DNA of 33,263 bases, taken from contig JANJWY010000046.1 of the NCBI GenBank assembly GCA_024709285.1, positions 1-33,263 of the forward strand. The letters are read 5' to 3'. A model generated the notes under the pieces. It saw only the letters and a program-made list of their open reading frames with translations. It was not told where the DNA came from and did no database searches. This DNA comes from Erysipelotrichaceae bacterium (GTDB lineage Bacteria; Bacillota_I; Bacilli_A; Erysipelotrichales; Erysipelotrichaceae). The position numbers were made by a program, and so were the translations under genes. Below are positions 4,446-28,797 of this stretch, one piece after another (the first letter of the stretch is position 1; every line of letters begins with the position of its first letter).

Positions 4446-4447
4446 CT

Positions 4448-4687
4448 TCAATCTCCCTTCTCGATAAACCAGCGATCATCCTCAAGAAACAAATACCGGC
4501 TTACTCCTTGAATGATACACGTATACCGGACACCGGCCCCGCCGGCCTTCAGTGAAGCTGCCAAAGTCACCTGAGTAACCTTATCTATAGCATATTTTAC
4601 ACCATTTTTCCAAATGATGACCAACGGTTTGATTTTTCCGTCCGCCTGATGGTGCACGATCACATCTACATACATTTTACCTGCCAT
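4448..4687 (-). CDS. 79-aa protein of unknown function, translationally coupled between the Y-family polymerase and SRAP
   Basis: Both junctions have stop, AG, then ATG: TAG-AG-ATG after the polymerase and TGA-AG-ATG before SRAP. I recognised no domain. Confidence 0.55.
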   Translation of the reverse strand: MAGKMYVDVIVHHQADGKIKPLVIIWKNGVKYAIDKVTQVTLAASLKAGGAGVRYTCIIQGVSRYLFLEDDRWFIEKGD

Positions 4688-4689
4688 CT

Positions 4690-5943: not shown

Positions 5944-5963
5944 ACATATCACTCCTTACCTAT

Positions 5964-5992
5964 ATTTTACTTGAAAATAATTCAAGTAGCAA
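5964..5992 (-). promoter_or_regulatory. sigma-A type promoter of the polymerase operon
   Basis: On the minus strand: TTGCTA (5992-5987), 17 nt, TAAAAT (5969-5964). Confidence 0.5.
5968..5988. promoter_or_regulatory. Palindromic operator 1 (TACTTGAA-N5-TTCAAGTA)
   Basis: It has perfect 8-bp inverted arms. It fills the spacer of the minus-strand promoter and touches both hexamers. Confidence 0.55.
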
Positions 5993-5996
5993 TAAA

Positions 5997-6017
5997 TACT
6001 TGAAAAATATTCAAGTA
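5997..6017. promoter_or_regulatory. Palindromic operator 2 (TACTTGAA-N5-TTCAAGTA)
   Basis: It has the same 8-bp arms as operator 1, centred 29 bp away. It covers the -35 and spacer of the repressor promoter. Confidence 0.55.
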
Positions 6018-6028
6018 ATTGCTATGAT
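6000..6028 (+). promoter_or_regulatory. sigma-A type promoter of the XRE/S24 repressor gene
   Basis: TTGAAA (6000-6005), 17 nt, TATGAT (6023-6028). Confidence 0.55.
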
Positions 6029-6044
6029 ATAGTCGGGTGATACT

Positions 6045-6641
6045 ATGACACTAAAAGACCGTCTGAGACAGCTCCGTAAAAAAGCCGGTTATTCCCAGGA
6101 AGAGCTGGCCAAGCGCTTTGGCTATAAGTCGTTTACAACGATTCAAAAATGGGAAGACGGCACTTCGACACCGCCGATGTCCGTTTTGCAACAGTTGGCC
6201 GCATTGTATCATGTTTCTTTTCAGCAGCTGCTGGGAGAAAATGATACGCTGGTATCCATTCCGGTCTTGGGTGTGGTCCGGGGCGGATTGCCAATCGATG
6301 CTTACGAACAGGAAATTGACAGTTATCCGACCGCAGTCGATGAACCGGGAGAGTACTTCTATTTGCGCGTTGTCGGTGATTCGATGATCAATGCCCGGAT
6401 TTTCGAAGGGGATGATGTTTTTGTCCGACGCCAGTCATCCGTTGCGCAAGGCGATATTGCTGTCATCATGATTGAGGACGAAGCAACCCTCAAGCGGGTG
6501 TATTTCAAAGAGAATCAGCTGATTTTGCAACCGGAAAACGATAAATATGAGCCAATGACCTTTACGCCTGAGCAAATTGAGCAAAAACGTATCATGATCA
6601 TCGGTAAAGTATTGCACAACCGCATATCATTTACAAAATAG
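6045..6641 (+). CDS. LexA-like autoproteolytic repressor with XRE-type HTH plus S24 peptidase domain (HdiR / phage-CI architecture)
   Basis: The N-terminus LRKKAGYSQEELAKRFGYKSFTTIQKWEDG is an HTH_3-type motif. The C-terminus has GDSM (Ser113) and LKRV (Lys150), 37 residues apart as in the LexA Ser/Lys dyad. Confidence 0.85.
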   Translation: MTLKDRLRQLRKKAGYSQEELAKRFGYKSFTTIQKWEDGTSTPPMSVLQQLAALYHVSFQQLLGENDTLVSIPVLGVVRGGLPIDAYEQEIDSYPTAVDEPGEYFYLRVVGDSMINARIFEGDDVFVRRQSSVAQGDIAVIMIEDEATLKRVYFKENQLILQPENDKYEPMTFTPEQIEQKRIMIIGKVLHNRISFTK

Positions 6642-7641: not shown

Positions 7642-10581
7642 ATGTTTTTGAAGAGAATCGAAATGCACGGATTTAAGTCGTTCGCTGACAAAGTCACGAT
7701 CAATTTTGATCATCCCGTGACTGGTGTCGTCGGTCCCAACGGATGTGGCAAGAGCAATATAACCGATGCCATACGCTGGGTTTTGGGGGAACAATCGGTT
7801 AAGTCCATGCGCAGTTCAACCATGACGGATGTCATTTTTACGGGCAGTGCCCAACGCAGAATGGTCAATATGGCAGAAGTAACGCTCGTGTTTGATAACA
7901 GCAGCCGTTCGTTGGCCAGTGATTATCATGAAGTAGAAATTACCCGCCGGATACACCGTAGCAGCCATGAAGGTGAGTATTATATAAACAAAGTTCCTTG
8001 CAGATTGAAGGATATTTTGGACTTGGTTACCGACAGCGGATTAGGACGTGATTCACTAAGCATGATTTCACAAGGAAGTATCAGTCAGTTTGCCGAAGCC
8101 AAACCTGCAGACAGACGGCTGATATTTGAAGAGGCTGCCGGAGTTGCCAAATATAAAAAGCGTAAACTGGAATCTTTGAGTAAGTTAGAACGTACCCAGG
8201 AAAATATGGATCGGGTATCAGATATCATCAGCGAGCTTGAAAGACAAGTGCTGCCATTGAAAAAAGCAGCAAAAAAAGCTGAAATTTATACTGAAAAGAA
8301 AAATGAACTTCAACAGATCGAAACGGCTGTATTAATTAACGATATTGACAGGCTAGATCAAGAAATTGATTCTGCAAACAAAACATTATTCGATTTGCAG
8401 TCGCGAAGTGTAATGGCAGAAACCACGATTCAGGTACATGAGACGGCGAATCAGGAAAACCGTCAGCTGACACATGATCTTGATCGTCAAATCAATGCCC
8501 TTCAAGATGAGATGTTAAAAACAGTATCAGAAATTCAGACACTTGAAACCCGTAAGATTGAGTTGGATGAAAAACGCAAATATACCATGGAAGTTGCGAA
8601 TGCGGAAGAGAAAGCAGTAGAACTGAAAGCATTATTGGAAGAAGCCAATGCAGAATTCAAAGACAGAGCTAACCGATTACGCCAATATCAGGCGGACATC
8701 GATTTATTTACCCAGCAAAGCATTGAAATTAATCGTCAGTTAGTTGATTTGCAATATGATGTGGATGAAACGCAAAGCCGGTTACGTCGTTTGAACTCAA
8801 GAAAAGATGTCCTGCAGAACATGCTTCAACGGCCGTTTATGTTGCAGGCAGGTGTTTCTGCTGTGCTGGATGCGAAAAATTCGTTGCCGGGCATTGAAGA
8901 TGTCGTTGCGAAAATCATTAAGCCGATGCAGGGTTATCAGGAAGCGGTATCGGTGGCTTTGGGTGGTGCTCAGTTCGACATCGTATGCAGTGATGATGTT
9001 TCAGCTCGACGGGCAATCAGTTTTTTAAAGAAAAATCAGAGCGGACGTGCGACATTTATACCCTTAAGTGTTCTTCAGCCAAGATCATTAAATCGTGATA
9101 TTCGCATCATATGCGAGAATACCGCCGGATTTCTGGGCGTGGCCAGTGAATTTGTGACATGTGAAGAGAAATTCCAATTAGTAAGCGATGCCTTTTTGGG
9201 TAATGTCATCATCAGTGATACATTGGAAAATGGAAATCAAATCGCTTCACTCATCCGATATCAGACAAAAATCGTTACTCTGGAAGGGGATGTGATCCAT
9301 CGGGGCGGAACGATGACCGGAGGCCGAGGGAAAGACCATGTGTCTTTATTGACGGTTTCAAAAGAAATGGATGAAGTTCAGATAAGCATCGACAATACCC
9401 TTGCACAACTCAATCAAAAAGAAGGTTCTCTGCAAAAGTCACGTAATCGCAAAAACGAGATTGATCAGCAATTGATGGAACGTCGGATTTCAGCTGCGCA
9501 AATCGAGCCGGTATTAGAAGCAAAGCGCGCAAAATATGAACGTCTGAAAAATGATTTGGAAACCCTGACTCCTTATATGGAAAGCGGTGAAGTCAGTTTT
9601 GCCGACAATTTGATTGACATGTTAAATAATGCTTATTCCCGAAGAGATGAGATAACGACTTCTATCCGGTTGAAAAGGGATCAACGCTTAAAACTTGGTT
9701 CGGAAATCGAACGTAAAGAGCAACAGATCCGTCAGATGCGGCGTGACTTGAATGCTATTGTGATTCGGGAACGGGAAGTGGGAATCGACCGTGCGAAAAT
9801 GGAAACAAAAGTTGAATCCTATTTACAGCGTCTGGCTTCCGAATATCAAATGACATACGATTATGCTAAAAGCATACGGGGTGATTTCATCGTTGAAAAT
9901 GCGAATGAGAAAGTCAAAGAGTTACGAAGTCAAATCGAAGCACTTGGTAATATCAATATGAATGCACCGGATGAGTTTGCTGAAGTCAATCAACGATACG
10001 AGTTCTTGAACGAACAACTACACCAATTGCAGGCCAGCCGTGACCAACTGCTGAAAATCATTGAAGATATGGATAAAGTAATGATCGATCAGTTTTCGGC
10101 AATGTTTGCCAGAATCAACCATGAACTGACAGATGTTTTCCATGCACTTTTCGGAGGCGGAAAATGTCGTTTGGTTTTGGAAGATCCCAACGATCTGCTG
10201 AATACAGGTGTGGATATCGATGTTCAGCCTCCGGGTAAAAACATTCAAAACATCCGTTTGTTTTCCGGTGGTGAAAAAGCGCTGATTGCCATTTCTGTGT
10301 TGTTTGCAATATTAAAGGCACGCCATGTTCCTTTATGCATTTTTGATGAAATTGAAGCTGCACTTGATCCAGGAAATGTCGAGCGATTTGCCAGATATCT
10401 GAAAAAGTTCAGCCAGATCACGCAGTTTATCGTAGTAACACATCGTCCGGGAACAATGGCGCAATGCGACATTCTGTATGGAGTAACCATGCCTCATCAC
10501 GGTGTATCGCAAATGTTGAAAGTTCGTTTGGCGGATGCAGTTGAACTTGCAGAAAGTGAGGAAGAACATGGGATTTCTTGA
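7642..10581 (+). CDS. smc: Chromosome segregation ATPase SMC (short 979-aa form)
   Basis: MFLKRIEMHGFKSFADK, Walker A GPNGCGKSN, long coiled-coil middle, signature LFSGGEKAL, Walker B LCIFDEIEAALD. GGAGGA RBS. Confidence 0.95.
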   Translation: MFLKRIEMHGFKSFADKVTINFDHPVTGVVGPNGCGKSNITDAIRWVLGEQSVKSMRSSTMTDVIFTGSAQRRMVNMAEVTLVFDNSSRSLASDYHEVEITRRIHRSSHEGEYYINKVPCRLKDILDLVTDSGLGRDSLSMISQGSISQFAEAKPADRRLIFEEAAGVAKYKKRKLESLSKLERTQENMDRVSDIISELERQVLPLKKAAKKAEIYTEKKNELQQIETAVLINDIDRLDQEIDSANKTLFDLQSRSVMAETTIQVHETANQENRQLTHDLDRQINALQDEMLKTVSEIQTLETRKIELDEKRKYTMEVANAEEKAVELKALLEEANAEFKDRANRLRQYQADIDLFTQQSIEINRQLVDLQYDVDETQSRLRRLNSRKDVLQNMLQRPFMLQAGVSAVLDAKNSLPGIEDVVAKIIKPMQGYQEAVSVALGGAQFDIVCSDDVSARRAISFLKKNQSGRATFIPLSVLQPRSLNRDIRIICENTAGFLGVASEFVTCEEKFQLVSDAFLGNVIISDTLENGNQIASLIRYQTKIVTLEGDVIHRGGTMTGGRGKDHVSLLTVSKEMDEVQISIDNTLAQLNQKEGSLQKSRNRKNEIDQQLMERRISAAQIEPVLEAKRAKYERLKNDLETLTPYMESGEVSFADNLIDMLNNAYSRRDEITTSIRLKRDQRLKLGSEIERKEQQIRQMRRDLNAIVIREREVGIDRAKMETKVESYLQRLASEYQMTYDYAKSIRGDFIVENANEKVKELRSQIEALGNINMNAPDEFAEVNQRYEFLNEQLHQLQASRDQLLKIIEDMDKVMIDQFSAMFARINHELTDVFHALFGGGKCRLVLEDPNDLLNTGVDIDVQPPGKNIQNIRLFSGGEKALIAISVLFAILKARHVPLCIFDEIEAALDPGNVERFARYLKKFSQITQFIVVTHRPGTMAQCDILYGVTMPHHGVSQMLKVRLADAVELAESEEEHGIS

Positions 10582-11533
10582 TCAGCTCAAAGAAAAGTTT
10601 ACTAAAAAAGCAGATAAAGATATATATCTTTCCGGGTTTGAACGGTCAAATCAGCTTCTTCGCAGTCGTATGTCCAATCTTTTCGATCTAAACCGAAGCC
10701 AGGATGAAGATTGGTTTGAAGAACTGATGATGGTATTGGTTGAAAGTGATATCAGTGTAAGTACAGCAAACAACATTATTGAAAAATTTAAAAAGGAACT
10801 TAAGAAGTCCGAGTTTTCAGTCAGTGAGTCCAAGCAGCTGTTGATATCAATCATGTCTGATTTCTATGGAGACTTTCCGTTGGATTTGATGTTGGCATTG
10901 CAAGGTCCGACTGTCGTATTGATCGTTGGCGTCAATGGCAGCGGTAAAACGACAACCATAGCCAAACTGGCACAAAAGTATAAAAATGAAGGTTTAAGCG
11001 TGGCGGTCGCTGCAGGTGATACCTTTCGGGCTGCTGCTATCGAACAGCTCAGTACTTGGGCAGCGCGCATCGGAGTGCCGTGTATCGCAGGCAAACCTCA
11101 ACAAGATCCGGCTTCTGTCATGGTGGATGCATGCCGGTATGCCAAAGAAAATAACATAGACGTCTTGTTGTGTGACACTGCCGGACGGCTTCAAAACAAG
11201 ACAAATCTGATGAATGAACTGGCTAAAATGTTTCGGGTGATCGGTCGTGAGATCGAAGGCGGACCGCATGCCGTGTGGCTGGTGCTTGATGCAACGACCG
11301 GTCAAAACGGTTTATCGCAAGCCAAAGTCTTTATGGAAGCAACGGAAGTCGGCGGTATCATTTTGACAAAAATGGACGGAACCGCTCGCGGAGGAATTGT
11401 CTTAACGATCAAAGAGGAAACGGGCATCGGCGTTATTTTCCTGGGACTTGGTGAGAAACCTGAAGATTTACGTCCATTCGACAAAGACAGTTATCTTTAC
11501 AGTTTGTTTGAAGGTAAAAACCATGTTCGATAA
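10568..11533 (+). CDS. ftsY: Signal recognition particle receptor FtsY
   Basis: GVNGSGKTTT, DTAGR and TKMDGTARGG SRP-GTPase motifs. I chose the start at MGFLDQLKEKF (GAGGAA RBS upstream). It overlaps the smc stop by 14 nt. Confidence 0.9.
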   Translation: MGFLDQLKEKFTKKADKDIYLSGFERSNQLLRSRMSNLFDLNRSQDEDWFEELMMVLVESDISVSTANNIIEKFKKELKKSEFSVSESKQLLISIMSDFYGDFPLDLMLALQGPTVVLIVGVNGSGKTTTIAKLAQKYKNEGLSVAVAAGDTFRAAAIEQLSTWAARIGVPCIAGKPQQDPASVMVDACRYAKENNIDVLLCDTAGRLQNKTNLMNELAKMFRVIGREIEGGPHAVWLVLDATTGQNGLSQAKVFMEATEVGGIILTKMDGTARGGIVLTIKEETGIGVIFLGLGEKPEDLRPFDKDSYLYSLFEGKNHVR

Positions 11534-11855
11534 AACCCGCCGGATGAATGATCTGCTGGACTGGTATGAGGAACTTTTGACTCAGCATCAGCGTGAGGTC
11601 ATGCATATGTATTATCACGATGACTATTCGCTTCGCGAAATCGCTGAAGTACTGAGTATAAGCCATAATGCCGTTTTTGATATCATTAAAAGAGTTGAGA
11701 AATTATTGAACACATTTGAAGAAAAAATCGGAGCTCTTGACTTTTATCAGAAAAATCAGCAAATGATCAGTGACTTAAAAGCTTTGAATGACGAGTCTGT
11801 CCGTGCTATAATAACCACGTTTGAAAATAATATCAAAGGAGAAAAAAATGAGTAA
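11523..11855 (+). CDS. ylxM: YlxM/UPF0122 small helix-turn-helix protein
   Basis: MFDKTRRMNDLLDWYEELLTQHQREVMHMYYHDDYSLREIAE is typical of YlxM. It overlaps the ftsY stop by 11 nt; the track start 11448 lies inside ftsY. Confidence 0.8.
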   Translation: MFDKTRRMNDLLDWYEELLTQHQREVMHMYYHDDYSLREIAEVLSISHNAVFDIIKRVEKLLNTFEEKIGALDFYQKNQQMISDLKALNDESVRAIITTFENNIKGEKNE

Positions 11856-13046: not shown

Positions 13047-14012
13047 ATGTTTGACGGATTACTGCACGAAATCGAAAAAGCACCGGTTATCTGTGTGTTT
13101 CGACATCTGATTCCGGATGCCGACGCTTTGGGCAGTCAGTGGGGACTGGTCGAATGGTTGCGGCTGACCTATCCGAATAAAAGAGTATTTGCTTTGGGTA
13201 AACATGTCGGTGTAAAACCGGAAATGTTTCCAGTCCCCGATCAAGTGAATGATGATGTGATTTCGGAGTCACTGGCCATTGTTTTAGATACGGCCAATGC
13301 CAAGCGTGTGGATGATCAGCGCTATCAGCTGGCAAAAACGATCATTCAAATCGATCATCATCCGCTTCATGAGACTTTTGGCAATAAGAAATATATTTTT
13401 GAACATCGGGCGGCTACCTGTGAGATCATAGCCGAATTTCTCGAGGCAAATGTAGTCAAGCCGCTGCCTAAAAAAATCGCAGAGTATCTTTATATGGGAT
13501 TGCTGACTGACACTCTGAGATTTTCGACGAACAACACCTCGGCGCATACATTGCGAATTGCCGCATATCTGGCTCAAAGTGATTTAAACTTTTCAAAACT
13601 CAACGAAGAAATGTTTTCAGTTTCATCTCAGGAATACCGTTTTTCCAATTACTTGCGCACCAATGCCGTCATTGAACCATGCGGGGTGGCCTATAGTTTT
13701 GTTACCCTTGAAACCATGGAGGAATTTGGCGTCAGTGCCAATGATGCAAAAGAACGCATCACCGATTTCGGTGGTGTACGAGATTTTGAAGCATGGGCAT
13801 TATTTATCGAACACAATGAAAACGGCCGTCGCTTTTTCAACGGATCGTTGCGATCAAAGCAGATTGCCGTCAATGATATTGCCCAGAATTACCGTGGGGG
13901 AGGGCATCGCAATGCCGCTGCCGTTAAGGAATGTTCTAAAGAAGAAGCTTTGGATATTATTGAGAAGTGCTGCTTACGAATAAAGGAGGCAAAGCACAAT
14001 GACACAGTTTAA
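13047..14012 (+). CDS. nrnA: DHH/DHHA1 phosphoesterase (NrnA-like nanoRNase / pAp phosphatase)
   Basis: DADALGS, IDHH and GGGH motifs in about 320 aa. The ATG lies 2 nt after the ackA stop. Confidence 0.75.
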   Translation: MFDGLLHEIEKAPVICVFRHLIPDADALGSQWGLVEWLRLTYPNKRVFALGKHVGVKPEMFPVPDQVNDDVISESLAIVLDTANAKRVDDQRYQLAKTIIQIDHHPLHETFGNKKYIFEHRAATCEIIAEFLEANVVKPLPKKIAEYLYMGLLTDTLRFSTNNTSAHTLRIAAYLAQSDLNFSKLNEEMFSVSSQEYRFSNYLRTNAVIEPCGVAYSFVTLETMEEFGVSANDAKERITDFGGVRDFEAWALFIEHNENGRRFFNGSLRSKQIAVNDIAQNYRGGGHRNAAAVKECSKEEALDIIEKCCLRIKEAKHNDTV

Positions 14013-15651
14013 ATTTAATTTTGGCAGTAGAATCCGGGTCAACCGAAGCACTCCGAAAAAAAACGGACATTTGTTAGCCGGAGTTCTTACGTTGGCCGGA
14101 CTGTTTGTTTATGATTATATTACGCTGCCCGCATGGAATTTCAGAAGCCCTGCATTTATCTTCATGTTGGCATTCGCGTTGTTTGCTTTTGCGACCATCG
14201 ATCAGATTTTTACACTGAGTATCAACCGTATCTCAAAAACGGCTTACATGCTTGGAACGCTTTTGATTGCCTATGTACTGGTGTTTGGCTTTCTGAGTTC
14301 TGAATTCCTCAATGCCAGAAAATTCCGTGAACAAATCGTCATCAAGGAGGTTAAAGATTTCTCCAGCGACTTTACCACGATTGCCCTGAACCGGATTCCG
14401 GTGGTTGACAAGGAAACGGCTCAACAATTAGGTGACAAACAAATCGGTACGATACAAGGGTTAGGATCTCAATACTATGTCGATCCTGAATACACTCTTG
14501 TCAGTTCATATGATCAGATTTTCCGTGTATCTCCGCTTCAATACCGTGAATTTTTCAAGTGGCTTCAAAACCGCGACGATGGAATTCCGGGATTTATTCG
14601 AGTCAATGTGACAAATCCGACGGATGTGACATTGGTTTCTTTGACCGAAGGAATGAGATATGCACCAAGCGCCTTTTTCTCGCAGGATTTACAAAGGCAT
14701 GTCCGGTTTAAATATCGCAGTAAAATCCTCAGTGAATACTCCTTTGAAATCGATGATTACGGGAAACCTTATTGGGTCATTTCGGTCATCGAACCGCAGA
14801 TCAATGTGTTTGGCGGTTTAAATGCCGTTGGAGCTGTCATCGTAGATCCGGTTGACGGAGATACTCAATATTACGATATCGATCAGTTGCCAAACTGGGT
14901 CGATCGTGTTCAGCCAACTGACATTGCTTGGGCGCAGATTGATAACTGGGGTTACTATATTAACGGTTTCATCAATACGCTTTTCAATCAGAAAGACATG
15001 TTACAGACTACCGAGGGCTATAACTATGTTTCCATTGAAGGTCAGACTCATGTTTTCAGTGGCTTGACATCCGTCGGATCTGATCGTTCAATCGTCGGAT
15101 TCGCTCTTATAAATCTAAGAAGCAGAGAAGCTACGTTTTATCGGATTGGCGGTGCTGATGAATATTCAGCAATGAGTTCTGCCGAAGGACAAGTACAGGA
15201 TTTGGGATATCGTTCGACATTCCCGATCCTTCTGAACATCTCGTCCATTCCGACTTATTTTGTTTCACTCAAAGATCAGGAAGGTCTGGTTAAGATGTAC
15301 TCATTTGTTGCCGTAAGCAACTATGCGGCCGTAGGTGTCGGTGGATCGATTGCTGATGCTCAACGGGATTATATGATGAGATTAAAGGAAGTCGGCATGA
15401 TCGTTGATGATCAGGAAACCTATAAAACGCTGAATCTGACAGTGGCGTCCGTTCACACAGCCATTGTTGATGGCAGCACGATTTACTATTTGACTTTTGA
15501 TGAGGATACCCGATTGTTCGTTGTACCGCTGTCTGTTTCTTTAGAAGTCGTCTTTGCTTCCGAAGGCGATGAAGTACAACTGAGTTTCTTCGATATTGAT
15601 GGCAATGTCATCATCGTTGATGAATTTGATCATCTGTCTGTGGATTATTGA
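13999..15651 (+). CDS. Membrane protein with 3 N-terminal TM segments and a ~450-aa extracytoplasmic domain, function unknown
   Basis: AAAGGAGG RBS. It overlaps the nrnA stop by 14 nt. I recognised no catalytic motif. Confidence 0.65.
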   Translation: MTQFKFNFGSRIRVNRSTPKKNGHLLAGVLTLAGLFVYDYITLPAWNFRSPAFIFMLAFALFAFATIDQIFTLSINRISKTAYMLGTLLIAYVLVFGFLSSEFLNARKFREQIVIKEVKDFSSDFTTIALNRIPVVDKETAQQLGDKQIGTIQGLGSQYYVDPEYTLVSSYDQIFRVSPLQYREFFKWLQNRDDGIPGFIRVNVTNPTDVTLVSLTEGMRYAPSAFFSQDLQRHVRFKYRSKILSEYSFEIDDYGKPYWVISVIEPQINVFGGLNAVGAVIVDPVDGDTQYYDIDQLPNWVDRVQPTDIAWAQIDNWGYYINGFINTLFNQKDMLQTTEGYNYVSIEGQTHVFSGLTSVGSDRSIVGFALINLRSREATFYRIGGADEYSAMSSAEGQVQDLGYRSTFPILLNISSIPTYFVSLKDQEGLVKMYSFVAVSNYAAVGVGGSIADAQRDYMMRLKEVGMIVDDQETYKTLNLTVASVHTAIVDGSTIYYLTFDEDTRLFVVPLSVSLEVVFASEGDEVQLSFFDIDGNVIIVDEFDHLSVDY

Positions 15652-20950: not shown

Positions 20951-21637
20951 ATGAACAGAACGACGGATTTTTTACCGGGAAGCAAATTCAAGATTTTTCA
21001 GCACAAGGATATGTTTCGTATCAATACAGACACCTTTGCGCTTGCGACCTTCATGATGATCAAAAAAGGTGAGATCGTCTTGGATATCGGTACAAATAAT
21101 GGTGCATTATTAATCGAAGCCTCCCGTTTTAGCCCGAAAGAACTGATCGGTGTCGACATTTTTGACGAAGCTACAGATATAGCCAGAGAGAATTTTAATG
21201 AGCTCCATATCGAAAATTATCGTCTTTATACTTGCAGAGTTCAGGATTTGACTGTTGAACCTGTAGATGTCATTTTATGCAACCCACCGTATTTCAACCA
21301 GATGAATAAGGCAAACCGCAATCCCAATCCATATCTTGAAGCGGCCCGACATGAGATATTTTTACCATTGGTCGAACTGCTTGACTGTGTAAACAGAGAT
21401 TTGAAATCACACGGTCGTTTCTATTTGATTCATCGATAAGATAGTTTTGCTGAAAAAAAAAATGAAGCAGACAAAAGAGGGTTGGCACTGAAAAAATGCA
21501 TGCCGATCATCGATCATCGTAAGAAGAACAGTCATGCCATATGCCTTGAATTTATCAAGGGCGGCAATCAGGGGCTGATATTTATTAATCCGATGGAAAT
21601 CGGAAAGGAGACAGACAATGACGGGTACGTGGATTAA
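20951..21637 (+). pseudogene. NPPY-type SAM-dependent methyltransferase (YabB / tRNA m6A37 TrmN6-like) interrupted by one in-frame TAA at 21437-21439
   Basis: It has DIGTNNGAL (SAM motif I) and CNPPYF motifs. After FYLIHR-TAA the same frame stays open for 65 more codons, DSFAEKKNEADKRGLALKKCMPIIDHRKKNSHAICLEFIKGGNQGLIFINPMEIGKETDNDGYVD. From memory, this aligns without gaps to the C-terminus of B. subtilis YabB (HRPERLLDIF...ILVEGIKDGK). Confidence 0.6.
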
Positions 21638-22340
21638 TGTTGCTGCCATCATGATCGGCAGCTGTGTGGGGTTGTTTCTTAAAAGAGGCATTTCTGATAA
21701 GTTGGGCGGAAGCTTGATGCAAGCTGTCGGACTTTGTGTAGTCATCATCGGTATTTCCGGAGCATTGAAAAGTGAAGACATGATCATTACGATCGTTTCA
21801 TTGGCTTTTGGTGCGTTGGTAGGTGAATCCATCGATATTGAAAAGAAAATGGATACTTTTGCTCAAAAAATTGAAGATCGTTTCAGCAATGGAAAGGAAT
21901 CCGGATGGTTTGTCCGCGGATTTGTGACAGCATCACTGTTGTTTGCTGTCGGAGCTATGGCAATCGTAGGATCGATTGAAAGCGGACTCAATGGTAATCA
22001 CGAAATTTTAATCACGAAGTCTTTATTGGACTTTATTGCTTCAATCGTACTGACTGCGTCATTGGGGATCGGAGTTTTTTTCTCGGCTTTTGTCATACTG
22101 ATTTATCAAGGTTCTATCACATTGGGATCTACTTTGCTTACCACCTTATTTTCATCGAATCTGACCATGGTTATTACCGCAATGTCTGCGGCCGGCTATA
22201 TACTGATTTTTGGGCTGGGGCTGAATATGCTGAAGATAACAAAATTAAAAATCGGCAATTTTGTTCCTGCGATTTTCTTTCCGATTTTGTATTACAGTCT
22301 GATATTACCAGCTATTGAGTTTGTGTTCAGTTTTTTATGA
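21618..22340 (+). CDS. DUF554 (YdfK-like) membrane protein
   Basis: The N-terminus GTWINVAAIMIGSCVGLFLKRGISDKL and the overall polytopic layout fit DUF554. GGAAAGGAG RBS. Confidence 0.75.
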   Translation: MTGTWINVAAIMIGSCVGLFLKRGISDKLGGSLMQAVGLCVVIIGISGALKSEDMIITIVSLAFGALVGESIDIEKKMDTFAQKIEDRFSNGKESGWFVRGFVTASLLFAVGAMAIVGSIESGLNGNHEILITKSLLDFIASIVLTASLGIGVFFSAFVILIYQGSITLGSTLLTTLFSSNLTMVITAMSAAGYILIFGLGLNMLKITKLKIGNFVPAIFFPILYYSLILPAIEFVFSFL

Positions 22341-22365
22341 CATGAATGTCAGTTAAGAGAGAAGT

Positions 22366-22383
22366 ATTGTTAATTCATTAACA
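22366..22383. promoter_or_regulatory. Candidate Rex (NADH/NAD+ sensing repressor) operator
   Basis: TTGTTAA-TTCA-TTAACAA is a perfect match to the clostridial Rex box TTGTTAA-N4-TTAACAA. It ends 6 bp upstream of the predicted -35 of the hydrogenase operon. Confidence 0.55.
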
Positions 22384-22389
22384 AAGTTA

Positions 22390-22417
22390 TTGAAAAATTC
22401 ATGACATATGTTAGAAT
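22390..22417 (+). promoter_or_regulatory. sigma-A type promoter of the hydrogenase operon
   Basis: TTGAAA (22390-22395), 16 nt, TGtTAGAAT (extended -10, hexamer 22412-22417). Confidence 0.5.
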
Positions 22418-22546
22418 ATAACCATGATAAGATCTTTATTGTAGAAGCAGCAGAAGAGTAATAGGCTGCACGAAACTATTTTTTTTAGATATATATGTGA
22501 ATAATATAACAAACATCAAAGGGTGTTTGTTTTGGAGGTAAAAGTG

Positions 22547-23041
22547 ATGCTGGAAGACAGACACCAACCATGTAATGGACACCTTCTATTTAATCAACAG
22601 GAAGTAATCAAAATCATTGATTTGTTTGACAGTAAAAGAAGCAACTTGATTCAGATTCTGCATCAGCTTCAAAATCTTTATGGTTTTTTACCGATTGAAA
22701 TTTTAGTTCAGGTGTCGAATAAAATGAGTGTTCCACTGTCTGAGGTTACCGGTGTCGTTTCATTTTATTCCTTCTTTTCTACACAGCCACGAGGCAGACA
22801 TACGATAAGAGTCTGTTTGGGAACTGCCTGTTATGTCAGAGGGGGAAAGAAGATCATTGAAAAAATTCAGGAACTATTGCAGGTTGATCTTGGTGGTACA
22901 ACCGAAGATCAGCGATTTACATTTGAAATAGCCCGTTGTATCGGGGCTTGCGGTTTAGCGCCGGCAGTAATGATTGACAATGAGGTTTATCGTCAAGTCA
23001 ATAGTAACAAACTCAAATCCATACTTGCTAAGTATGATTAG
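22547..23041 (+). CDS. hydC: NuoE/HydC-like [2Fe-2S] thioredoxin-fold subunit of a multimeric [FeFe]-hydrogenase
   Basis: Cys pattern CLGTAC...CIGACGLAP. GGAGG RBS lies 8 nt before the ATG at 22547; the track start 22523 is upstream of the RBS. Confidence 0.8.
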   Translation: MLEDRHQPCNGHLLFNQQEVIKIIDLFDSKRSNLIQILHQLQNLYGFLPIEILVQVSNKMSVPLSEVTGVVSFYSFFSTQPRGRHTIRVCLGTACYVRGGKKIIEKIQELLQVDLGGTTEDQRFTFEIARCIGACGLAPAVMIDNEVYRQVNSNKLKSILAKYD

Positions 23042-23049
23042 GAGGTAGT

Positions 23050-26000
23050 ATGAAACAGATCATAAACACGATTCACCAGCTGAATCAGCTTAAAACACAA
23101 TATCTTTTTGATATGTCATTTTACTCGCATCAGATTCTTATATGTGGTGGTGCTGGATGTGTATCTTCAAACTGTGACAGTGTCAGTGCTGCCGTAGATG
23201 AGAAACTTAAAGAATTAAAGCTATCTGAAAAGGTTAAAGTATATCAGGTGGGATGTATGGGTATGTGTGCAGTCGGTCCGATTATGCTGATTTTGCCTGA
23301 GAAAACATTTTACACCCATTGTACACCGCAAAGCGCTAAGCGAATCGTGGTCAATCACATCGTAAATAAAAAAATACTTCTTGAACACACATTTTATGAT
23401 CAAAGCCTGAAGAAACATGTTCCTTGTATCGATGATATCGATTTTTTCAAGACTCAGATAAAAATCGCTTTAAGGAACTGCGGATCAATCGAAAACGATT
23501 CAATCAAAGCTTACATTGCTAAAGACGGATACTTCGCCATTGCTAAGATACTCAAAGTTTTCAGTGCAGAAAAGGTGATTGAAGAAATCACAAATTCGGG
23601 GTTGAGGGGACGTGGCGGTGCAGGATTTCTAACAGGAGTAAAGTGGAAAGCTGGTTATCTGGCAAAAAGCGATCAGAAATATATGATATGCAACGCGGAT
23701 GAGGGTGATCCTGGTGCATTTATGGATCGTTCGATCATTGAGGGTGATCCTCACTCAGTAATTGAAGGAATGATGATCGGCGGATATGCGATTGGAGCAT
23801 CCAAAGGATATATTTATATCCGAGCCGAATATCCCCTGGCAATCAAACGATTAAGTTACGCACTTGAAGAAGCGAGAGAATTTGGTTTGCTCGATCGCAA
23901 AATTTTTGAAAGCAATTTCAGTTTTGATATAGAAATCCGGATTGGCGCCGGTGCTTTTGTCTGTGGTGAAGAAACCGCTTTAATCGCTTCCATTGAAGGC
24001 AAACGAGGAGAACCGAGTCAGAAACCGCCATATCCTTTTCAGAAGGGTGTATTTAAAAAGCCGACAATAATTAACAATGTTGAAACATTGGCCAGTATAC
24101 CTGCTATCATGTTAAAAGGAGCAGCCTGGTACAGTCAGTTTGGCACGGAAAGCAGTAAAGGAACCAAAGTTTTTGCTCTGGCCGGAGATATCGTAAATAC
24201 AGGTATCGTTGAAGTACCGATCGGCACACCGATTGGAGATATTCTGTTTAACATCGGCGGAGGTATCAGTGGTAAAAAGAAATTTAAAGCGGCTCAAATC
24301 GGCGGACCATCCGGCGGATGTATCACACTTGAAAATCTCAATACGCCAACCGATTATGACCAATTAGCGAAACTGGGTGCAATCATGGGTTCGGGTGGTC
24401 TGATTGCCATGGATGAGGATACCTGTATGGTAGATACGGCGAGATTCTTCATGGATTTTATTCAAGATGAATCATGCGGAAAATGTCTGCCATGCCGTTT
24501 AGGTACTAAGCAAATGCTTGAAATATTAGAACGCATCACCCAAGGAAAAGGTGTTGAGGGCGATATAGAAATGCTGATCGAATTGGGCGAGACCATTCAA
24601 CAAACAGCCATTTGCGGTCTGGGTCAGTCAGCACCCAATCCGGTATTAAGTACGATCCGTTATTTCAAAGAGGAGTATCAGCAACACATTCGTGATAAAT
24701 TTTGTAAAGCCGGGGTTTGCTCAGATTTATTCATTTCGCCTTGTGAAAACACATGTCCTGCAAATATTAATGTCCCAGGATATATACGCTTGATCGCTGC
24801 CGGAAGATTTTTGGATGCTTACCAGCTGATCCGACAGGAAAATCCGTTTCCGGCGGTCTGCGGTCGGATATGCACGCGTCCCTGTGAATCGAAATGTCGC
24901 CGCTCAATGACTGACGAAGCTGTCGCAATATGTGATTTAAAGCGATTTGCCGCGGACTATGCGTATAGAAATGAAAAAGAGATTCTGATAGATGCGATCA
25001 TGACTAAAAACGGTAGGAAAGTTGCCATTATAGGGGCTGGTGCATCTGGGCTTACCTGTGGGTATTATCTAGTCAGAAACGGTTATGAAGTGGATGTGTA
25101 TGAACAAGAAAGTGTCGCCGGCGGTGTGCTTGCTTTTGGAATTCCGGAATACAGATTGCCAAAAGAAGTCTTAGCACACGAAATCTCACTCATTGAGAAA
25201 ACCGGAGTAAGAATTCATTTAAATACACAGATTGGAAAAGATATTGCTTTTGAACAATTAAAGAAAGACTATGATTCCGTTTATGTTGCTACAGGAACAC
25301 AGTTTCCTGAAAAAATCCGTGTTGAGGGAGAAGATTTACCGGGTGTGATTCATGGCATAAACTTCTTGAAGGAAGTTAATTCAAATATGAAATATCGGAT
25401 TGATGGCAAAGTCATTGTCATCGGGGGAGGAAACACGGCGATTGACTCAGCCAGAACCGCTCTTCGTTGCGGAGCCAGTGAAGTCATCGTTCTTTATCGC
25501 CGTACCATCGATGCCATGCCGGCATATGAAGCTGAAATTCATGAAGCAGTGTCCGAAGGCGTCCGTATTATTGAGTTGGCATCACCTAAACGTTTTATCC
25601 AAGGTCAAAATGGAAGCGTATCTCAAATAGAGTGTTTCAAGATGCAACTGGCTGAATTTGATAATTCCGGAAGAAGAAAATCAAAAGCCATTGAAAATTC
25701 AACTTTTAAAATCGATGCAGATTTGGTCATAGTTGCGGTAAGTCAGTATTCAGATTTGCCTTTTATCAAAAAAGAGGAAATCGGCGTTACACGTTGGGGA
25801 ACGTTTGTTGTTGACGGCAAAACGCTGATGACAACGATGGATGGTGTTTTTGCCGGAGGCGATGTTGCACGCGGACCGGATACTGTCATACAGGCAATAG
25901 CTGATGGTAAAAAGGCGGCTGAGTCAATAGACAGGTATTTAGGAGGAAAAGGATTACTGAATAAAGGGATGCGGATTGATTTGCCAACGGTTGCAGATGA

Positions 26001-26148
26001 AGATGAAATCGTTGCACTGCATCGCTTTCCGTTGGATATTTTAGATGTTGAACACAGAAAAAGCAGTTTCAGTGAAGTTGTTTTAGGATATCACAAGCTC
26101 AATGCAATGGCAGAAGCCATGCGTTGTCTGCATTGTGACCGGAGGTAA
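23050..26148 (+). CDS. Fusion protein: NuoF/HydB-like FMN/NADH/[4Fe-4S] module (aa ~1-547) plus GltD/NfnB-like [4Fe-4S]/FAD/NAD(P)H module (aa ~548-1032)
   Basis: N-terminal part: GGAGCVSSNC...GCMGMCAVGP, GLRGRGGAGF, NADEGDPGAF, ESCGKCLPCR. C-terminal part: PCENTCPANINVPGYIRLI...NPFPAVCGRICTRPCESKCRR, VAIIGAGASGL, VIVIGGGNTAIDSARTALRCGASEVIVLYRR, GVFAGGD. Confidence 0.85.
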   Translation: MKQIINTIHQLNQLKTQYLFDMSFYSHQILICGGAGCVSSNCDSVSAAVDEKLKELKLSEKVKVYQVGCMGMCAVGPIMLILPEKTFYTHCTPQSAKRIVVNHIVNKKILLEHTFYDQSLKKHVPCIDDIDFFKTQIKIALRNCGSIENDSIKAYIAKDGYFAIAKILKVFSAEKVIEEITNSGLRGRGGAGFLTGVKWKAGYLAKSDQKYMICNADEGDPGAFMDRSIIEGDPHSVIEGMMIGGYAIGASKGYIYIRAEYPLAIKRLSYALEEAREFGLLDRKIFESNFSFDIEIRIGAGAFVCGEETALIASIEGKRGEPSQKPPYPFQKGVFKKPTIINNVETLASIPAIMLKGAAWYSQFGTESSKGTKVFALAGDIVNTGIVEVPIGTPIGDILFNIGGGISGKKKFKAAQIGGPSGGCITLENLNTPTDYDQLAKLGAIMGSGGLIAMDEDTCMVDTARFFMDFIQDESCGKCLPCRLGTKQMLEILERITQGKGVEGDIEMLIELGETIQQTAICGLGQSAPNPVLSTIRYFKEEYQQHIRDKFCKAGVCSDLFISPCENTCPANINVPGYIRLIAAGRFLDAYQLIRQENPFPAVCGRICTRPCESKCRRSMTDEAVAICDLKRFAADYAYRNEKEILIDAIMTKNGRKVAIIGAGASGLTCGYYLVRNGYEVDVYEQESVAGGVLAFGIPEYRLPKEVLAHEISLIEKTGVRIHLNTQIGKDIAFEQLKKDYDSVYVATGTQFPEKIRVEGEDLPGVIHGINFLKEVNSNMKYRIDGKVIVIGGGNTAIDSARTALRCGASEVIVLYRRTIDAMPAYEAEIHEAVSEGVRIIELASPKRFIQGQNGSVSQIECFKMQLAEFDNSGRRKSKAIENSTFKIDADLVIVAVSQYSDLPFIKKEEIGVTRWGTFVVDGKTLMTTMDGVFAGGDVARGPDTVIQAIADGKKAAESIDRYLGGKGLLNKGMRIDLPTVADEDEIVALHRFPLDILDVEHRKSSFSEVVLGYHKLNAMAEAMRCLHCDRR

Positions 26149-26151
26149 CCT

Positions 26152-27936
26152 ATGATCAACTGTACCATTAACAATAAACTGATTCGAGTAGAAGATAATA
26201 CGACGATCTTAGAAGCATGCAGAAAAAACGGAATATATATTCCGAGTTTGTGTAATCTTGATAAGATATGTAATTTCGGGACATGTCGTATGTGTATTGT
26301 TGAAGTTGAAAAAGCGAAAACGTTGCAAGCGGCTTGTGTAACGATGGTTCAAGAGGGCATGATCATTAAGACAAACACGTTGAAAGTCACTTCAATGCGC
26401 AAAGTGCTTTATGAACTGCTTTTGTCCGATCATAAACAGCAATGTCTGAGCTGTTCAAGAAATTTAACTTGTGAATTACAGGCTTTGGGAAAAACACTGG
26501 GCATCAAAGAAAGCAGATTCAACTCTTTTGAATCACATCGTAAAAGTGAAATAAGCGTTTCGATTACCAGAGACATGGATAAATGCATACTTTGCCGAAG
26601 ATGTATCAGTGTTTGCAATGAGATACAAGGTGTCGGTATCCTTCATGCTCAAAACAGAGGATATGATACTGTGATTTCCCCGGCCAATGAGTTTGACCTT
26701 GCACAGACGGATTGTATTTACTGCGGTCAGTGCACGATGGTATGCCCTGTTGGAGCTTTGATGGAAACTGATGCCACCGAAACTGTCAGAATAGCTTTAA
26801 ATGATCCGAAGATTCACACGGTCGTCCAGGTAGCACCGGCAATCAGGGTTGCAATCGGTGAAGAATTTGGTTATCCTGCCGGAACACCGGTTACGGGCAA
26901 ACTGTTCTCTGCCTTGCGGGAGTTGGGCTTTAATGACATATTTGATACCAATTTCGCAGCGGATCTGACTGTCATTGAAGAGGGTACAGAGTTTTTGGGC
27001 AGAATTGAAAATGCTTTACTGAAAGGGCAAAGTAAACTGCCGATGGTTACTTCTTGTTCTCCGGGTTGGATAAAATACTGTGAACACAATTTCCCGGATC
27101 ATCTGGATCATTTATCAACGTGTAAGTCTCCGCATATGATGCTTGGATCACTTGTAAAGTCATACTATGCCAAAAAGATTGATGTTGATCCAAGAAATAT
27201 GTTTGTTGTTTCAGTTATGCCATGCACAGCCAAAAAGTTCGAAATCACCCGTGATGAAATGACGTTTGAAAAGCTAAGCAATGTTGATGCTGTTCTTACT
27301 ACTCGTGAATTGGCATCGCTGATAAAATCAGCGGGAATCGATTTTACACTGCTTTCAGACAGTGATGCAGATAATCCTTTAGGATTCAGCAGTGGTGCTG
27401 CGGATATATTTGGTGTGACCGGGGGTGTAATGGAAGCAGCTTTGCGCACCGCATATGAACTCATCACTGGACGTGAGGTGCCGTTTGAACACTTGCATTT
27501 GCAGCAGATTGAAGGATTGGATCCCATAAAAGAAGCATCGATAAAAATTGCTGATCCATTACCGGCATTTAAGTATTTAGAAGATCAGACTTTGCGTATC
27601 GCAGTTGCTAGCGGAGTAAAGAATGCTGAAAAACTGATGAAACAGATTGCGGATGGAACTTCACCATATCACTTTATCGAAATCATGGGATGTCCGGGCG
27701 GTTGTATCAGCGGCGGTGGTCAACCCCGATCTAAGGATCCATTGGTGGCTCAAAAACGTCTGGAAGGATTATTTGCTGAGGATAATCGGAAAGAGATTCG
27801 AAAATCACATCAAAATGCTTTTGTAAATGAGCTTTATGAAGCATTTCTGTTAAATCCCAACAGTCACATTGCTCATGAGTATTTACACACCCATTACGTT
27901 CGTCGCGGTAAGTTCAATGAATTTCTGAAGAAATGA
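26152..27936 (+). CDS. hydA: [FeFe]-hydrogenase catalytic-subunit homolog (M3-type: 2Fe-2S, His-ligated 4Fe-4S, 2x 4Fe-4S, H-domain) with a variant L1 motif
   Basis: L2 is VMPCTAKKFE (Cys358) and L3 is EIMGCPGGCISGGGQP (Cys514, Cys518). L1 reads TSCSPGW (residues 300-306) rather than TSCCPxW. The N-terminus has ferredoxin-type Cys clusters. Confidence 0.8.
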   Translation: MINCTINNKLIRVEDNTTILEACRKNGIYIPSLCNLDKICNFGTCRMCIVEVEKAKTLQAACVTMVQEGMIIKTNTLKVTSMRKVLYELLLSDHKQQCLSCSRNLTCELQALGKTLGIKESRFNSFESHRKSEISVSITRDMDKCILCRRCISVCNEIQGVGILHAQNRGYDTVISPANEFDLAQTDCIYCGQCTMVCPVGALMETDATETVRIALNDPKIHTVVQVAPAIRVAIGEEFGYPAGTPVTGKLFSALRELGFNDIFDTNFAADLTVIEEGTEFLGRIENALLKGQSKLPMVTSCSPGWIKYCEHNFPDHLDHLSTCKSPHMMLGSLVKSYYAKKIDVDPRNMFVVSVMPCTAKKFEITRDEMTFEKLSNVDAVLTTRELASLIKSAGIDFTLLSDSDADNPLGFSSGAADIFGVTGGVMEAALRTAYELITGREVPFEHLHLQQIEGLDPIKEASIKIADPLPAFKYLEDQTLRIAVASGVKNAEKLMKQIADGTSPYHFIEIMGCPGGCISGGGQPRSKDPLVAQKRLEGLFAEDNRKEIRKSHQNAFVNELYEAFLLNPNSHIAHEYLHTHYVRRGKFNEFLKK

Positions 27937-28029
27937 ATAATTAATGGTTCTTAATTACAATTCCTGAATTTGATTCTATACAAAATAGAGGGTATCGAGT
28001 ATAATATATAAGCGAAACGTTTGTTCGAA

Positions 28030-28058
28030 TTGACGAACGCTTTTGCATGTGTTAAACT
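28030..28058 (+). promoter_or_regulatory. sigma-A type promoter of rplU-prp-rpmA
   Basis: TTGACG (28030-28035), 17 nt, TGtTAAACT (extended -10, hexamer 28053-28058). Confidence 0.55.
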
Positions 28059-28163
28059 GACGAAGTTGTACGTCCTAGTGACTGCAACCGCACTTGTTTG
28101 GGTCTAAGTGAGAAATCCACCCAAAGAGGCGAGTCTGAGAAAAAAATGAAGGAGGTGCACGTA
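28059..28163 (+). ncRNA. Structured 5' leader, probable ribosomal protein L21 leader (autoregulatory cis-element of Firmicutes)
   Basis: The ~100-nt untranslated leader lies between the promoter and the rplU RBS, and contains the hairpin TTTGGGT...ACCCAAA. The call rests on position and on known L21 leaders upstream of rplU-ysxB-rpmA; it was not aligned to a covariance model. Confidence 0.45.
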
Positions 28164-28475
28164 ATGTACGCAGTAATCGAAACCGGTGGAAAACAATTAA
28201 AAGTCGAGGTCGGTCAAACCATTTTCGTTGAGAAACTGGATGTTGCCGAAGGAGATGTCGTAACATTCGACAATGTATTGGTTTATTCCAACCGTACGAC
28301 CAAAGTAGGAACTCCCTATATTAAGGGAGCCAAGGTAACCGCTAAAGTTGAGAAACAAGGCAAGGCTAAAAAAATCATCATTGTGAAATACAAGCCGAAA
28401 AAAGGTTCTACCCGCCGCAAACAAGGTCATCGTCAACCGTATACGAAATTAACCGTCGAAACAATCGAGGCTTAA
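28164..28475 (+). CDS. rplU: 50S ribosomal protein L21
   Basis: Starts [14 protein letters not shown] with an AAGGAGGTG RBS. The track start 28098 lies in the leader. Confidence 0.95.
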
Positions 28476-28479
28476 TCGT

Positions 28480-28797
28480 ATGATTCAGGTGCACGTCAAA
28501 AAAACCAAGGAAGATCAGATTACCTTCATCCGTATCAGCGGACATGCTGAATATGATGTCAAAGGTAAAGATTTGGTTTGTGCAGCAGTCAGTGCTATCG
28601 GCGTTGGTGGACTTAATTCGCTTGACAAGATGGCTACCGGATCGGTCAAAGATGAACTGAATGACAATAAAATCGAAATCACAGTTGTCAGATTTGATGT
28701 CGCTCAGCAAAACATACTTAAAACAATGCTTTACCAGTTGGAAACGGTAGAGTACTCATATTCCAAATATATTCAAATTACGAAACAGGAGGTGTAA
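28480..28797 (+). CDS. prp: Ribosomal-processing cysteine protease Prp (YsxB family)
   Basis: It has the SGHAEY...[10 protein letters not shown] catalytic His/Cys motifs and sits between rplU and rpmA. Confidence 0.9.

Follow-up and report, generated by a model that had tools for sequence, protein, structure and literature searches.

The operon and its fused gene

The DNA considered here, referred to as the window, is the whole 33,263-nucleotide (nt) contig JANJWY010000046.1 of an Erysipelotrichaceae bacterium (assembly GCA_024709285.1). It contains an operon of three closely packed genes on the + strand, in the order hydC-hydB-hydA, with spacers of 8 nt (23042-23049) and 3 nt (26149-26151). 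The middle gene is a hydB-gltD fusion (23050..26148), a single open reading frame (ORF) of 1032 codons with an ATG start and no internal stop, in which a HydB-type, NuoF-like subunit runs directly into a GltD/NfnL-type flavoprotein module. Upstream of it is hydC (22523..23041, 172 codons), encoding a NuoE-like protein with a thioredoxin-like [2Fe-2S] domain (Pfam 2Fe-2S_thioredx, PF01257, E 1.5e-47); downstream is hydA (26152..27936, 594 amino acids), encoding the [FeFe]-hydrogenase catalytic subunit (Fe_hyd_lg_C, E 2.8e-92; Fe_hyd_SSU). An initial annotation had proposed this gene order, the two short gaps, the unbroken middle ORF and a set of diagnostic motifs, and all of them are found where it placed them. 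The profiles of four Pfam domains, Complex1_51K, NADH_4Fe-4S, Fer4_20 and Pyr_redox_2, match the fusion protein in that order.

The HydC protein also matches the NCBIfam HoxE/NuoE models and has its four Cys residues in two pairs, CLGTAC and CIGAC. Its true start is probably the GTG at 22544 or the ATG at 22547 and not the listed GTG at 22523, because a GGAGG sequence at 22534-22538 lies after the listed start and before these two codons.

The N-terminal half: a bifurcating-type HydB core

Residues 23-561 of the fusion protein align end to end with residues 2-542 of Acetobacterium woodii HydB (7q4v_B), which is the best match (E 1.4e-211). The B subunit of the NiFe-Bfu enzyme, Thermoanaerobacter kivui HydB, T. 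maritima HydB, StnB and C. saccharolyticus NfnB also align with this half. Four Pfam domains follow one another along it. The first is an N-terminal 2Fe-2S_thioredx domain, the B5 site (23125..23349, residues 26-100, E 3e-8), with ligands C32, C37, C69 and C73. Next comes the flavin mononucleotide (FMN)/NAD(H)-binding Complex1_51K domain (23587..24102, residues 180-351, E 2e-47), which contains GRGGAGF at residues 187-193, and then an SLBB domain (residues 375-423). The last is the NADH_4Fe-4S domain of the [4Fe-4S] cluster B1 (24433..24687, residues 462-546, E 2.5e-34), with ligands C476, C479, C482 and C522, the first three of them in the motif ESCGKCLPC (residues 474-482). At the FMN/NAD site the block CNADEGDPGAFMDR is identical in the NAD-dependent HydB of A. 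woodii and the whole stretch is close, with GRGGAGF in the fusion against GRGGGGF in A. woodii.

The core closes with the motif HIRDKFCKAGVC (24685..24720), which supplies H546, C552 and C557 and, together with C459, corresponds to the Zn/B2 site of the Bfu enzymes. It aligns with HIRDKKCPAGVC of A. woodii HydB, and T. kivui HydB and StnB have HIRDKKC-x4-C motifs here. The structure paper published in JBC in 2025 (PMC12018979) identifies this His and three Cys as the Zn (B2) hinge that joins the four-helix bundle to the ferredoxin-like domain, and reports that the signature His is kept in virtually all Bfu B subunits and absent from non-Bfu HydB homologues. Because of the end-to-end alignment with HydB, the signature His with its Zn hinge, and the closely similar FMN/NAD site, the N-terminal half is identified at the level of sequence as a complete bifurcating-type BfuB core.

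All of the HydB and BfuB alignments end at this hinge, at about residue 561 (nt ~24732). The initial annotation had put the end of the HydB-like part at residue 547; alignment to HydB of solved structure moves the boundary to the later position. The junction comes a few residues past the hinge motif, at the point where a canonical HydB begins its ferredoxin-like domain of two clusters.

The C-terminal half: a GltD/NfnL module in place of the ferredoxin-like domain

In the enzymes whose structures are available, ferredoxin is reduced at the C-terminal B3/B4 domain of HydB or NfnB, and B3/B4 is fed by a swinging [2Fe-2S] cluster, C1, of HydC or NfnC (PMC10021017, PMC12018979, PMC10482914). Unfused relatives that are ~62% identical (found at L074, L075, L078 and L079 of the locus scan described below) have this domain, recognizable as two CxxCxxCxxxC motifs after the hinge. 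In the fusion protein B3/B4 (two copies of CX2CX2CX3CP) is absent, and the PCENTCP motif of a Fer4_20 domain starts ~7 residues past the last hinge Cys. The HydB-type alignments stop at the hinge and matches to NfnB and NfnL take over after it, so that the proposed replacement of the ferredoxin domains by a GltD/NfnB-like module stands.

The module opens with the GltD/NfnL-type iron-sulfur domain Fer4_20 (24697..24972, residues 550-641, E 1.7e-25), with PCENTCP at residues 564-570 and CGRICTRPCESKC at residues 604-616. It continues with the Rossmann domains for flavin adenine dinucleotide (FAD) and NADP(H), matched by Pyr_redox_2 (25018..25908, residues 657-953, E 6e-28), which carry GAGASG (662-667), IPEYRLP, GGGNTAID (792-799) and YRR (816-818). 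It ends with a helix and the motif RCLHC (26029..26139, residues 994-1030), the permuted counterpart of the N-terminal helix and CxxC of NfnB and NfnL. Its eight Cys residues (565, 569, 604, 608, 612, 616, 1026 and 1029) are the complement for two [4Fe-4S] clusters.

The closest PDB matches to the C-terminal 470 residues are GltD-type inserts in Bfu A subunits, namely those of 9bov_A (E 1e-117), C. saccharolyticus NfnA (9n5u_A, 3e-115) and S. ovata StnC (8oh5_C, 5e-108); next come T. maritima NfnB (8e-99), P. furiosus NfnL (2.5e-96) and the glutamate synthase small subunits (4e-75). The circular permutation is evident from T. maritima NfnB (PDB 4ylf_B), whose residues 7-43 align with the extreme C-terminus of the fusion. 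The GltD inserts of StnC (ending at about residue 566) and of 9bov_A have the same end points as the fused module, running from PC...CP to RCLxC. At the strand of the NADPH site the fusion reads YRRTIDAMPA and StnC reads YRRTIDEMPA; StnC is NADPH-dependent by experiment, as reported in the Stn paper. By these motifs and alignments the C-terminal half is a complete GltD/NfnL module in the Bfu-type permutation, with predicted sites for two [4Fe-4S] clusters, FAD and, by type, NADPH. The two separate nucleotide and flavin sites of the initial annotation, one in the FMN domain and the other in the FAD/NADP(H) Rossmann domains, are thus supported.

One alternative is a four-substrate hybrid of HydABC and Nfn. 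Ferredoxin would then dock at the distal GltD [4Fe-4S] cluster, H2, NAD(H), NADP(H) and ferredoxin would be interconverted, and the FAD might be a second bifurcating site. In NfnAB the most probable binding site for ferredoxin is close to the distal NfnB cluster (PMC5861303), and the window module has the full eight Cys of T. maritima NfnB, while StnC is one short, with Lys170 or Cys114 instead. The window protein retains all the hallmarks of bifurcation in its HydB core, and it shares the Arg of IPE(Y/F)RLP in its GltD module with T. maritima NfnB, P. furiosus NfnL and StnC. We tentatively equate this residue with the Arg at FAD-N5 (R201 in NfnB, R239 in StnC). The same Arg is found in StnC, however, whose FAD does not bifurcate; the module most resembles the non-bifurcating Bfu-type inserts and not NfnB; and the operon has no NfnA-like partner. 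We regard the hybrid as less likely than the reading preferred below. The IPE(Y/F)RLP Arg, being shared by bifurcating NfnB and non-bifurcating StnC, was dropped as a marker of FAD bifurcation.

Conservation and distribution of the fusion

Thousands of relatives of the fusion protein are present in the protein database; the sizes and identities given here are those of the best 120. They are 1012-1099 residues long, nearly all of them ~1031-1036, and 98-68% identical to the window protein. Their sources are metagenome-assembled genomes (MAGs) of Erysipelotrichaceae, which are the closest, Mobilitalea sibirica, and assemblies of Clostridiaceae, Oscillospiraceae and Christensenellales, and their database names are generic: 'NADH-quinone oxidoreductase subunit F', 'NuoF', 'FAD-dependent oxidoreductase' or 'hydrogenase'. 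Clustering at 50% gives about a dozen clusters that cover both halves. A scan of loci, with one genome per species, yielded 80 loci (L001 to L080), of which 70, from several phyla, encode a full-length fusion.

The cofactor ligands are strongly conserved in the alignment of these 70 proteins. C69 and C73 of the N-terminal [2Fe-2S] site and all four B1 ligands (C476, C479, C482 and C522) are present in every one, C32 and C37 in 63, and each Cys of the GltD module in 67-70. The hinge residues C459, H546, C552 and C557 and the FMN, FAD and NADPH motifs are invariant or nearly so. That the single ORF is an artefact of assembly or a frameshift joining two genes has a negligible probability: proteins of equal length, 98-68% identical, recur in many independent assemblies, fusions come from several phyla, and conserved residues lie on both sides of the junction. 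For these reasons an artefact is excluded, and the predicted fusion is taken as real, conserved and widespread.

NuoE and the fusion are followed by a full-length HydA in Bacillota, Synergistaceae, Desulfovibrionaceae, Dethiosulfatibacter aminovorans DSM 17477 and Holophaga/Geothrix. A second arrangement is seen in Dehalococcoidales, other Chloroflexota, delta-proteobacterial MAGs, Desantisbacteria and Hydrogenedentota: here the next gene resembles HydA in the N-terminal iron-sulfur part only. In both loci of this second kind that were scanned with Pfam that gene encodes an FdhA-type molybdopterin formate dehydrogenase: L047, from Dehalococcoidales (8981-11737), and L039, from a delta-proteobacterial MAG (9134-11845). 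An in-frame TGA interrupts the L039 gene at 10193-10195, and its context, CARL-U-HS, points to selenocysteine. Gene order thus marks the NuoE and NuoF-GltD pair as a predicted generic module with two nucleotide sites, used by at least two low-potential catalytic partners, H2/H+ and formate/CO2.

At seven loci (L034-L037, L068, L071 and L080) a canonical HydABC operon lies directly upstream of the fusion operon. Its HydB is unfused and its HydA is ~47% identical to that of the window; this side-by-side arrangement argues against redundancy between them. When the NuoF parts are compared in a neighbour-joining tree (crude, and without support values), the fusions fall into a single large clade, inside which four unfused HydB proteins are also placed. 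That nesting suggests that domains have been swapped.

Two other groups of proteins bear on the history of the module. Eight proteins of ~650 amino acids (P0309, P0318, P0326, P0333, P0377, P0385, P0387 and P0390) match only residues ~428-1031 of the fusion. They consist of the [4Fe-4S] four-helix domain from the C-terminus of NuoF joined to a GltD module, resemble NCBIfam PRK12771, and could represent either an intermediate in evolution or a family of their own. Separate genes for GltD/NfnB-like proteins, with 35-40% identity to the fused module, are found close to the operon at L004 (8420-9619), L005 (11939-13138), L022 (3961-5214) and L038 and L039 (about 1030-2264); at L039 an ORF of 278 amino acids is found just upstream of such a gene.

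HydA and the competence of its H-cluster

Pfam finds in HydA every domain expected of a group A [FeFe]-hydrogenase: a [2Fe-2S] domain, one [4Fe-4S] domain of the NuoG type, two more [4Fe-4S] sites, the H-domain and a tail that resembles the small subunit. It scores 830.5 bits against the NCBIfam model FeFe_hydrog_A6 (NF040763, 'NADH-dependent [FeFe] hydrogenase, group A6'), for which the cutoff is 765, and its top PDB matches are the T. kivui protein (E 3.6e-170) and A. woodii HydA1 (E 5.9e-166). The L2 motif MPCTAKKFE (27217..27243) and the L3 motif EIMGCPGGCISGGGQP (27679..27726) are canonical, and the residues that align with the proton-relay Cys of CpI and its neighbours are kept. The L1 motif (27049..27069) is TSCSPGW, with Ser for the second Cys of the usual TSCCPGW.

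The same TSCSPGW is found in all 120 of the closest HydA homologues and in A. woodii HydA1 (PDB 7q4v_A). In the A. woodii enzyme, Ser301 replaces a Cys ligand of the [4Fe-4S] part of the H-cluster; the infrared signature is apparently unaffected, and the enzyme complex has activity (Katsyv et al., PMC10021017). The variant had been considered as a lost H-cluster ligand, which would have made the protein an inactive scaffold of the Stn kind; its presence in all of these homologues and in an active enzyme led us to reject that interpretation. HydA looks catalytically competent.

The initial annotation had left two functions side by side, a hydrogenase or an Stn-like transhydrogenase. The second would have the operon exchange electrons between NADH and NADPH, with the HydA homologue serving only as an iron-sulfur scaffold, and it takes its appeal from the fact that Stn, too, is made of HydBC-like parts and an NfnB-like part. 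Set against it are the complete L1, L2 and L3 motifs, matching those of active A. woodii HydA1, the score above the curated group A6 cutoff, and a difference of architecture: StnC has no H-domain and itself bears the GltD insert, and StnB keeps B3/B4. Of the two functions the sequence favours the hydrogenase, on the strength of L1-L3 and the A6 score, and a transhydrogenase of the Stn type is very improbable.

Upstream signals and surroundings of the operon

A perfect 18-nt palindrome, TTGTTAATTCATTAACAA, lies upstream of hydC at 22367..22384. It is the sole match in the window with two or fewer mismatches allowed. Copies with one mismatch stand at the corresponding place in each of the five orthologous Erysipelotrichaceae loci (L001-L005), and L028 and L029 have such copies too. 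The palindrome fits the clostridial consensus for the operator of Rex, the repressor that senses NADH/NAD+, and is a candidate Rex operator. Just downstream of it is a promoter-like sequence on the + strand, TTGAAA-16 nt-TAGAAT with an extended TG (22390..22417). It is a consensus match only, at 10 of 12 positions, and has the top score within 21400-28600. If the palindrome is a Rex operator, the operon would be turned on when NADH accumulates, which would fit a role in the disposal of reductant.

Several features outside the operon were noted in passing. An Rfam L21_leader (RF00559, 47.9 bits) occupies 28076-28146, after hydA and ahead of the L21-Prp-L27-Obg genes. The TTG called as the start of the L21 ORF (28098) falls within this leader, and the real start of L21 is therefore further downstream. 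An SOS-type cluster occupies 3873-6641: the genes for an SRAP peptidase (3873-4451) and a DinB/IMS polymerase (4690-5952), both on the - strand, are divergent from that for a LexA-like repressor with helix-turn-helix and S24 domains (6045-6641, +). Between the genes for a DHH/DHHA1 protein and the alpha subunit of DNA polymerase III, an ORF of 550 amino acids (13999-15651) matches no Pfam domain at E <= 1e-3.

What the complex may do

The reading that we prefer, to which we give about an even chance, is that the operon encodes a cytoplasmic hydrogenase that is coupled to both nucleotides, NAD(H) through the FMN and NADP(H) through the FAD, the GltD module being placed on what was formerly the ferredoxin branch. 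H2 would be oxidized or formed at HydA and NAD(H) would react at the FMN. The other branch would run from the mobile [2Fe-2S] cluster C1 of HydC through the two GltD clusters to the FAD and NADP(H), replacing the path from C1 through B3/B4 to ferredoxin. The net reaction would be 2 H2 + NAD+ + NADP+ <-> NADH + NADPH + 2 H+, and soluble ferredoxin would not be needed. The assignment of the module to this branch and the independence of ferredoxin are what we infer from the replacement of B3/B4. Given a genuine Rex operator, the complex would be a sink for excess NAD(P)H that evolves H2 at low H2 partial pressure; the reverse reaction would be feasible at high H2.

A number of points weigh against this. 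The position of the GltD clusters relative to C1 is read from the connectivity of the chain only, and an AlphaFold2 monomer model of the fusion, made with an alignment of 34 sequences, is too poor to place the two halves (predicted local distance difference test score, 59.7; predicted template-modelling score, 0.46). Ferredoxin could still be a substrate. No biochemical data on any member of the fusion family were found in the open-access literature. The scanned ORFs of the 33-kb window include no genes for the maturases HydE, HydF and HydG; since maturase genes are often sited elsewhere in the genome, their absence from the window is uninformative.

The energetics also present a difficulty. 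From the physiological potentials given by Schut et al. (PMC9304861), which are -280 mV for NADH, -380 mV for NADPH, -414 mV for H2 and -500 mV for ferredoxin, we calculate that NADH and NADPH together have a mean of ~-330 mV, so that H2 would be formed only below roughly 100 Pa. By the same arithmetic, uptake of H2 into both nucleotides is exergonic at higher H2 and coupling is needless. It is therefore unclear what such an enzyme would gain from a bifurcating core.

In another alternative the hydrogenase does not bifurcate and has two independent ports, the FMN for NADH and the FAD for NADPH; each nucleotide would reduce protons, or be reduced by H2, with no obligatory coupling between them. 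Both nucleotides can be reduced at high H2 in exergonic, uncoupled reactions, the loss of B3/B4 takes away the known ferredoxin site, and ferredoxin-independent, NADH-linked HydAB(C) enzymes are reported from Syntrophus aciditrophicus and Syntrophomonas wolfei. On the other side, the window protein and most of the family have the N-terminal [2Fe-2S] site that is reported missing from HydB of the S. wolfei type, and they keep and conserve the signature His and Zn hinge, which are reported absent from non-Bfu HydB homologues. We consider two uncoupled ports improbable.

A broader proposal extends the coupled scheme to the whole family. NuoE and NuoF-GltD may constitute a distinct and widespread class of Bfu cores, in which the low-potential branch leads into an attached NADP(H) flavoprotein and NADH and NADPH are con- or bifurcated without ferredoxin; the operon described here would then represent its hydrogenase form, and the FdhA-bearing relatives its formate dehydrogenase form. 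We advance it tentatively, at rather less than even confidence.

All characterized enzymes of the Bfu/HydABC type reduce ferredoxin at the two-cluster domain at the C-terminus of HydB, and the fusion family shows a conserved departure from them. Should its NADP(H) module indeed belong to the low-potential branch, it would constitute a natural experiment on how the bifurcation site made up of FMN, [4Fe-4S] and [2Fe-2S] delivers its second electron. There would then be a ferredoxin-free route from H2 or formate straight to both pyridine-nucleotide pools, and metabolic reconstructions would change for many uncultured fermenters, among them Erysipelotrichaceae, Oscillospiraceae, Christensenellales, Synergistaceae and Dehalococcoidales. 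Such a complex could also be of interest for engineered, NAD(P)H-driven production of H2.

Comparison with known systems

The fusion is a variant of the HydABC/Bfu family. We found no description of a HydB-GltD fusion in the open-access literature on Bfu, HydABC, Stn and Nfn, and no earlier account of this variant or its biochemistry there. The window operon has the same three subunit roles as the HydABC (FeFe-Bfu) enzymes of A. woodii, T. kivui and T. maritima, and its HydA has the Ser-variant L1 motif of A. woodii HydA1. The HydB core is likewise shared, with its N-terminal [2Fe-2S] cluster, FMN/NAD(H) site, B1, signature His and Zn hinge. The difference lies beyond the hinge, where HydB of these enzymes has the ferredoxin-like B3/B4 domain and the window protein has the 470-residue GltD/NfnL module instead. 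The survey by Schut et al. describes the cofactor set of BfuBC as absolutely conserved (PMC9304861), a rule that the fusion family breaks.

The StnABC and NfnABC enzymes of Sporomusa ovata, Caldicellulosiruptor saccharolyticus and Thermococcus sibiricus resemble the window system in combining a HydBC-like core with a GltD-type NADPH/FAD module. It is to the inserts of these Stn/Nfn-Bfu enzymes that the window module is closest (E 1e-117 to 5e-108), and they have in common the circular permutation and the C-terminal RCLxC. The statement in the initial annotation that Stn is built of HydABC-like and NfnB-like parts was sound as to the parts and needs correction as to their arrangement. StnC (1172 amino acids) is a NuoG-like protein with GltD inserted after its N-terminal [2Fe-2S] domain and no H-cluster, while in the window GltD is on the C-terminus of HydB and the operon has a true HydA. 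StnB is an ordinary HydB-like protein; it and the NfnB of NfnABC keep both C-terminal [4Fe-4S] sites, B3 and B4, and ferredoxin is a substrate; HydB of the window is without these sites. Since GltD of Stn sits in the NuoG-like subunit and StnB is ordinary, the window operon is not built like Stn. The position in the electron path would differ as well: the GltD module of Stn is a mid-potential electron input, and that of the window, by the topology of the chain, would be at the low-potential output.

The two-subunit NfnAB (NfnSL) enzymes of Thermotoga maritima and Pyrococcus furiosus share one part with the window operon, NfnB (NfnL) being homologous to the C-terminal half of the fusion. The N-terminal helix and CxxC of NfnB have moved to the C-terminus in the window protein, and no NfnA-like partner ([2Fe-2S], FAD, NAD) was found in the operon or among the scanned ORFs of the window.

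Coupling of H2 to NADP(H) by a multimeric [FeFe] enzyme, as proposed for the window complex, is known from the NADP-specific bifurcating hydrogenase/formate dehydrogenase HytA-E/FdhA of Clostridium autoethanogenum and from the NADP-using HydABC of T. kivui. In these, however, NADP(H) reacts at the single NuoF-like FMN site, ferredoxin is required, and there is no GltD module. The non-bifurcating, NADH-dependent HydAB(C) enzymes of Syntrophus aciditrophicus and Syntrophomonas wolfei are possibly independent of ferredoxin, the ferredoxin site of their HydB being lost or altered. Their HydB is reported to be without the N-terminal [2Fe-2S] or the C-terminal clusters and has no second flavin/nucleotide module; the window protein, in contrast, keeps the hallmarks of a bifurcating enzyme.

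The dimeric, GltD-linked [FeFe]-hydrogenases of group A2 (HydDB), finally, pair HydA with a separate GltD-type NADPH flavoprotein and are not known to have NuoE- or NuoF-like subunits. In the window operon the GltD module is instead fused to a full NuoF-like HydB, within a trimeric HydABC operon.

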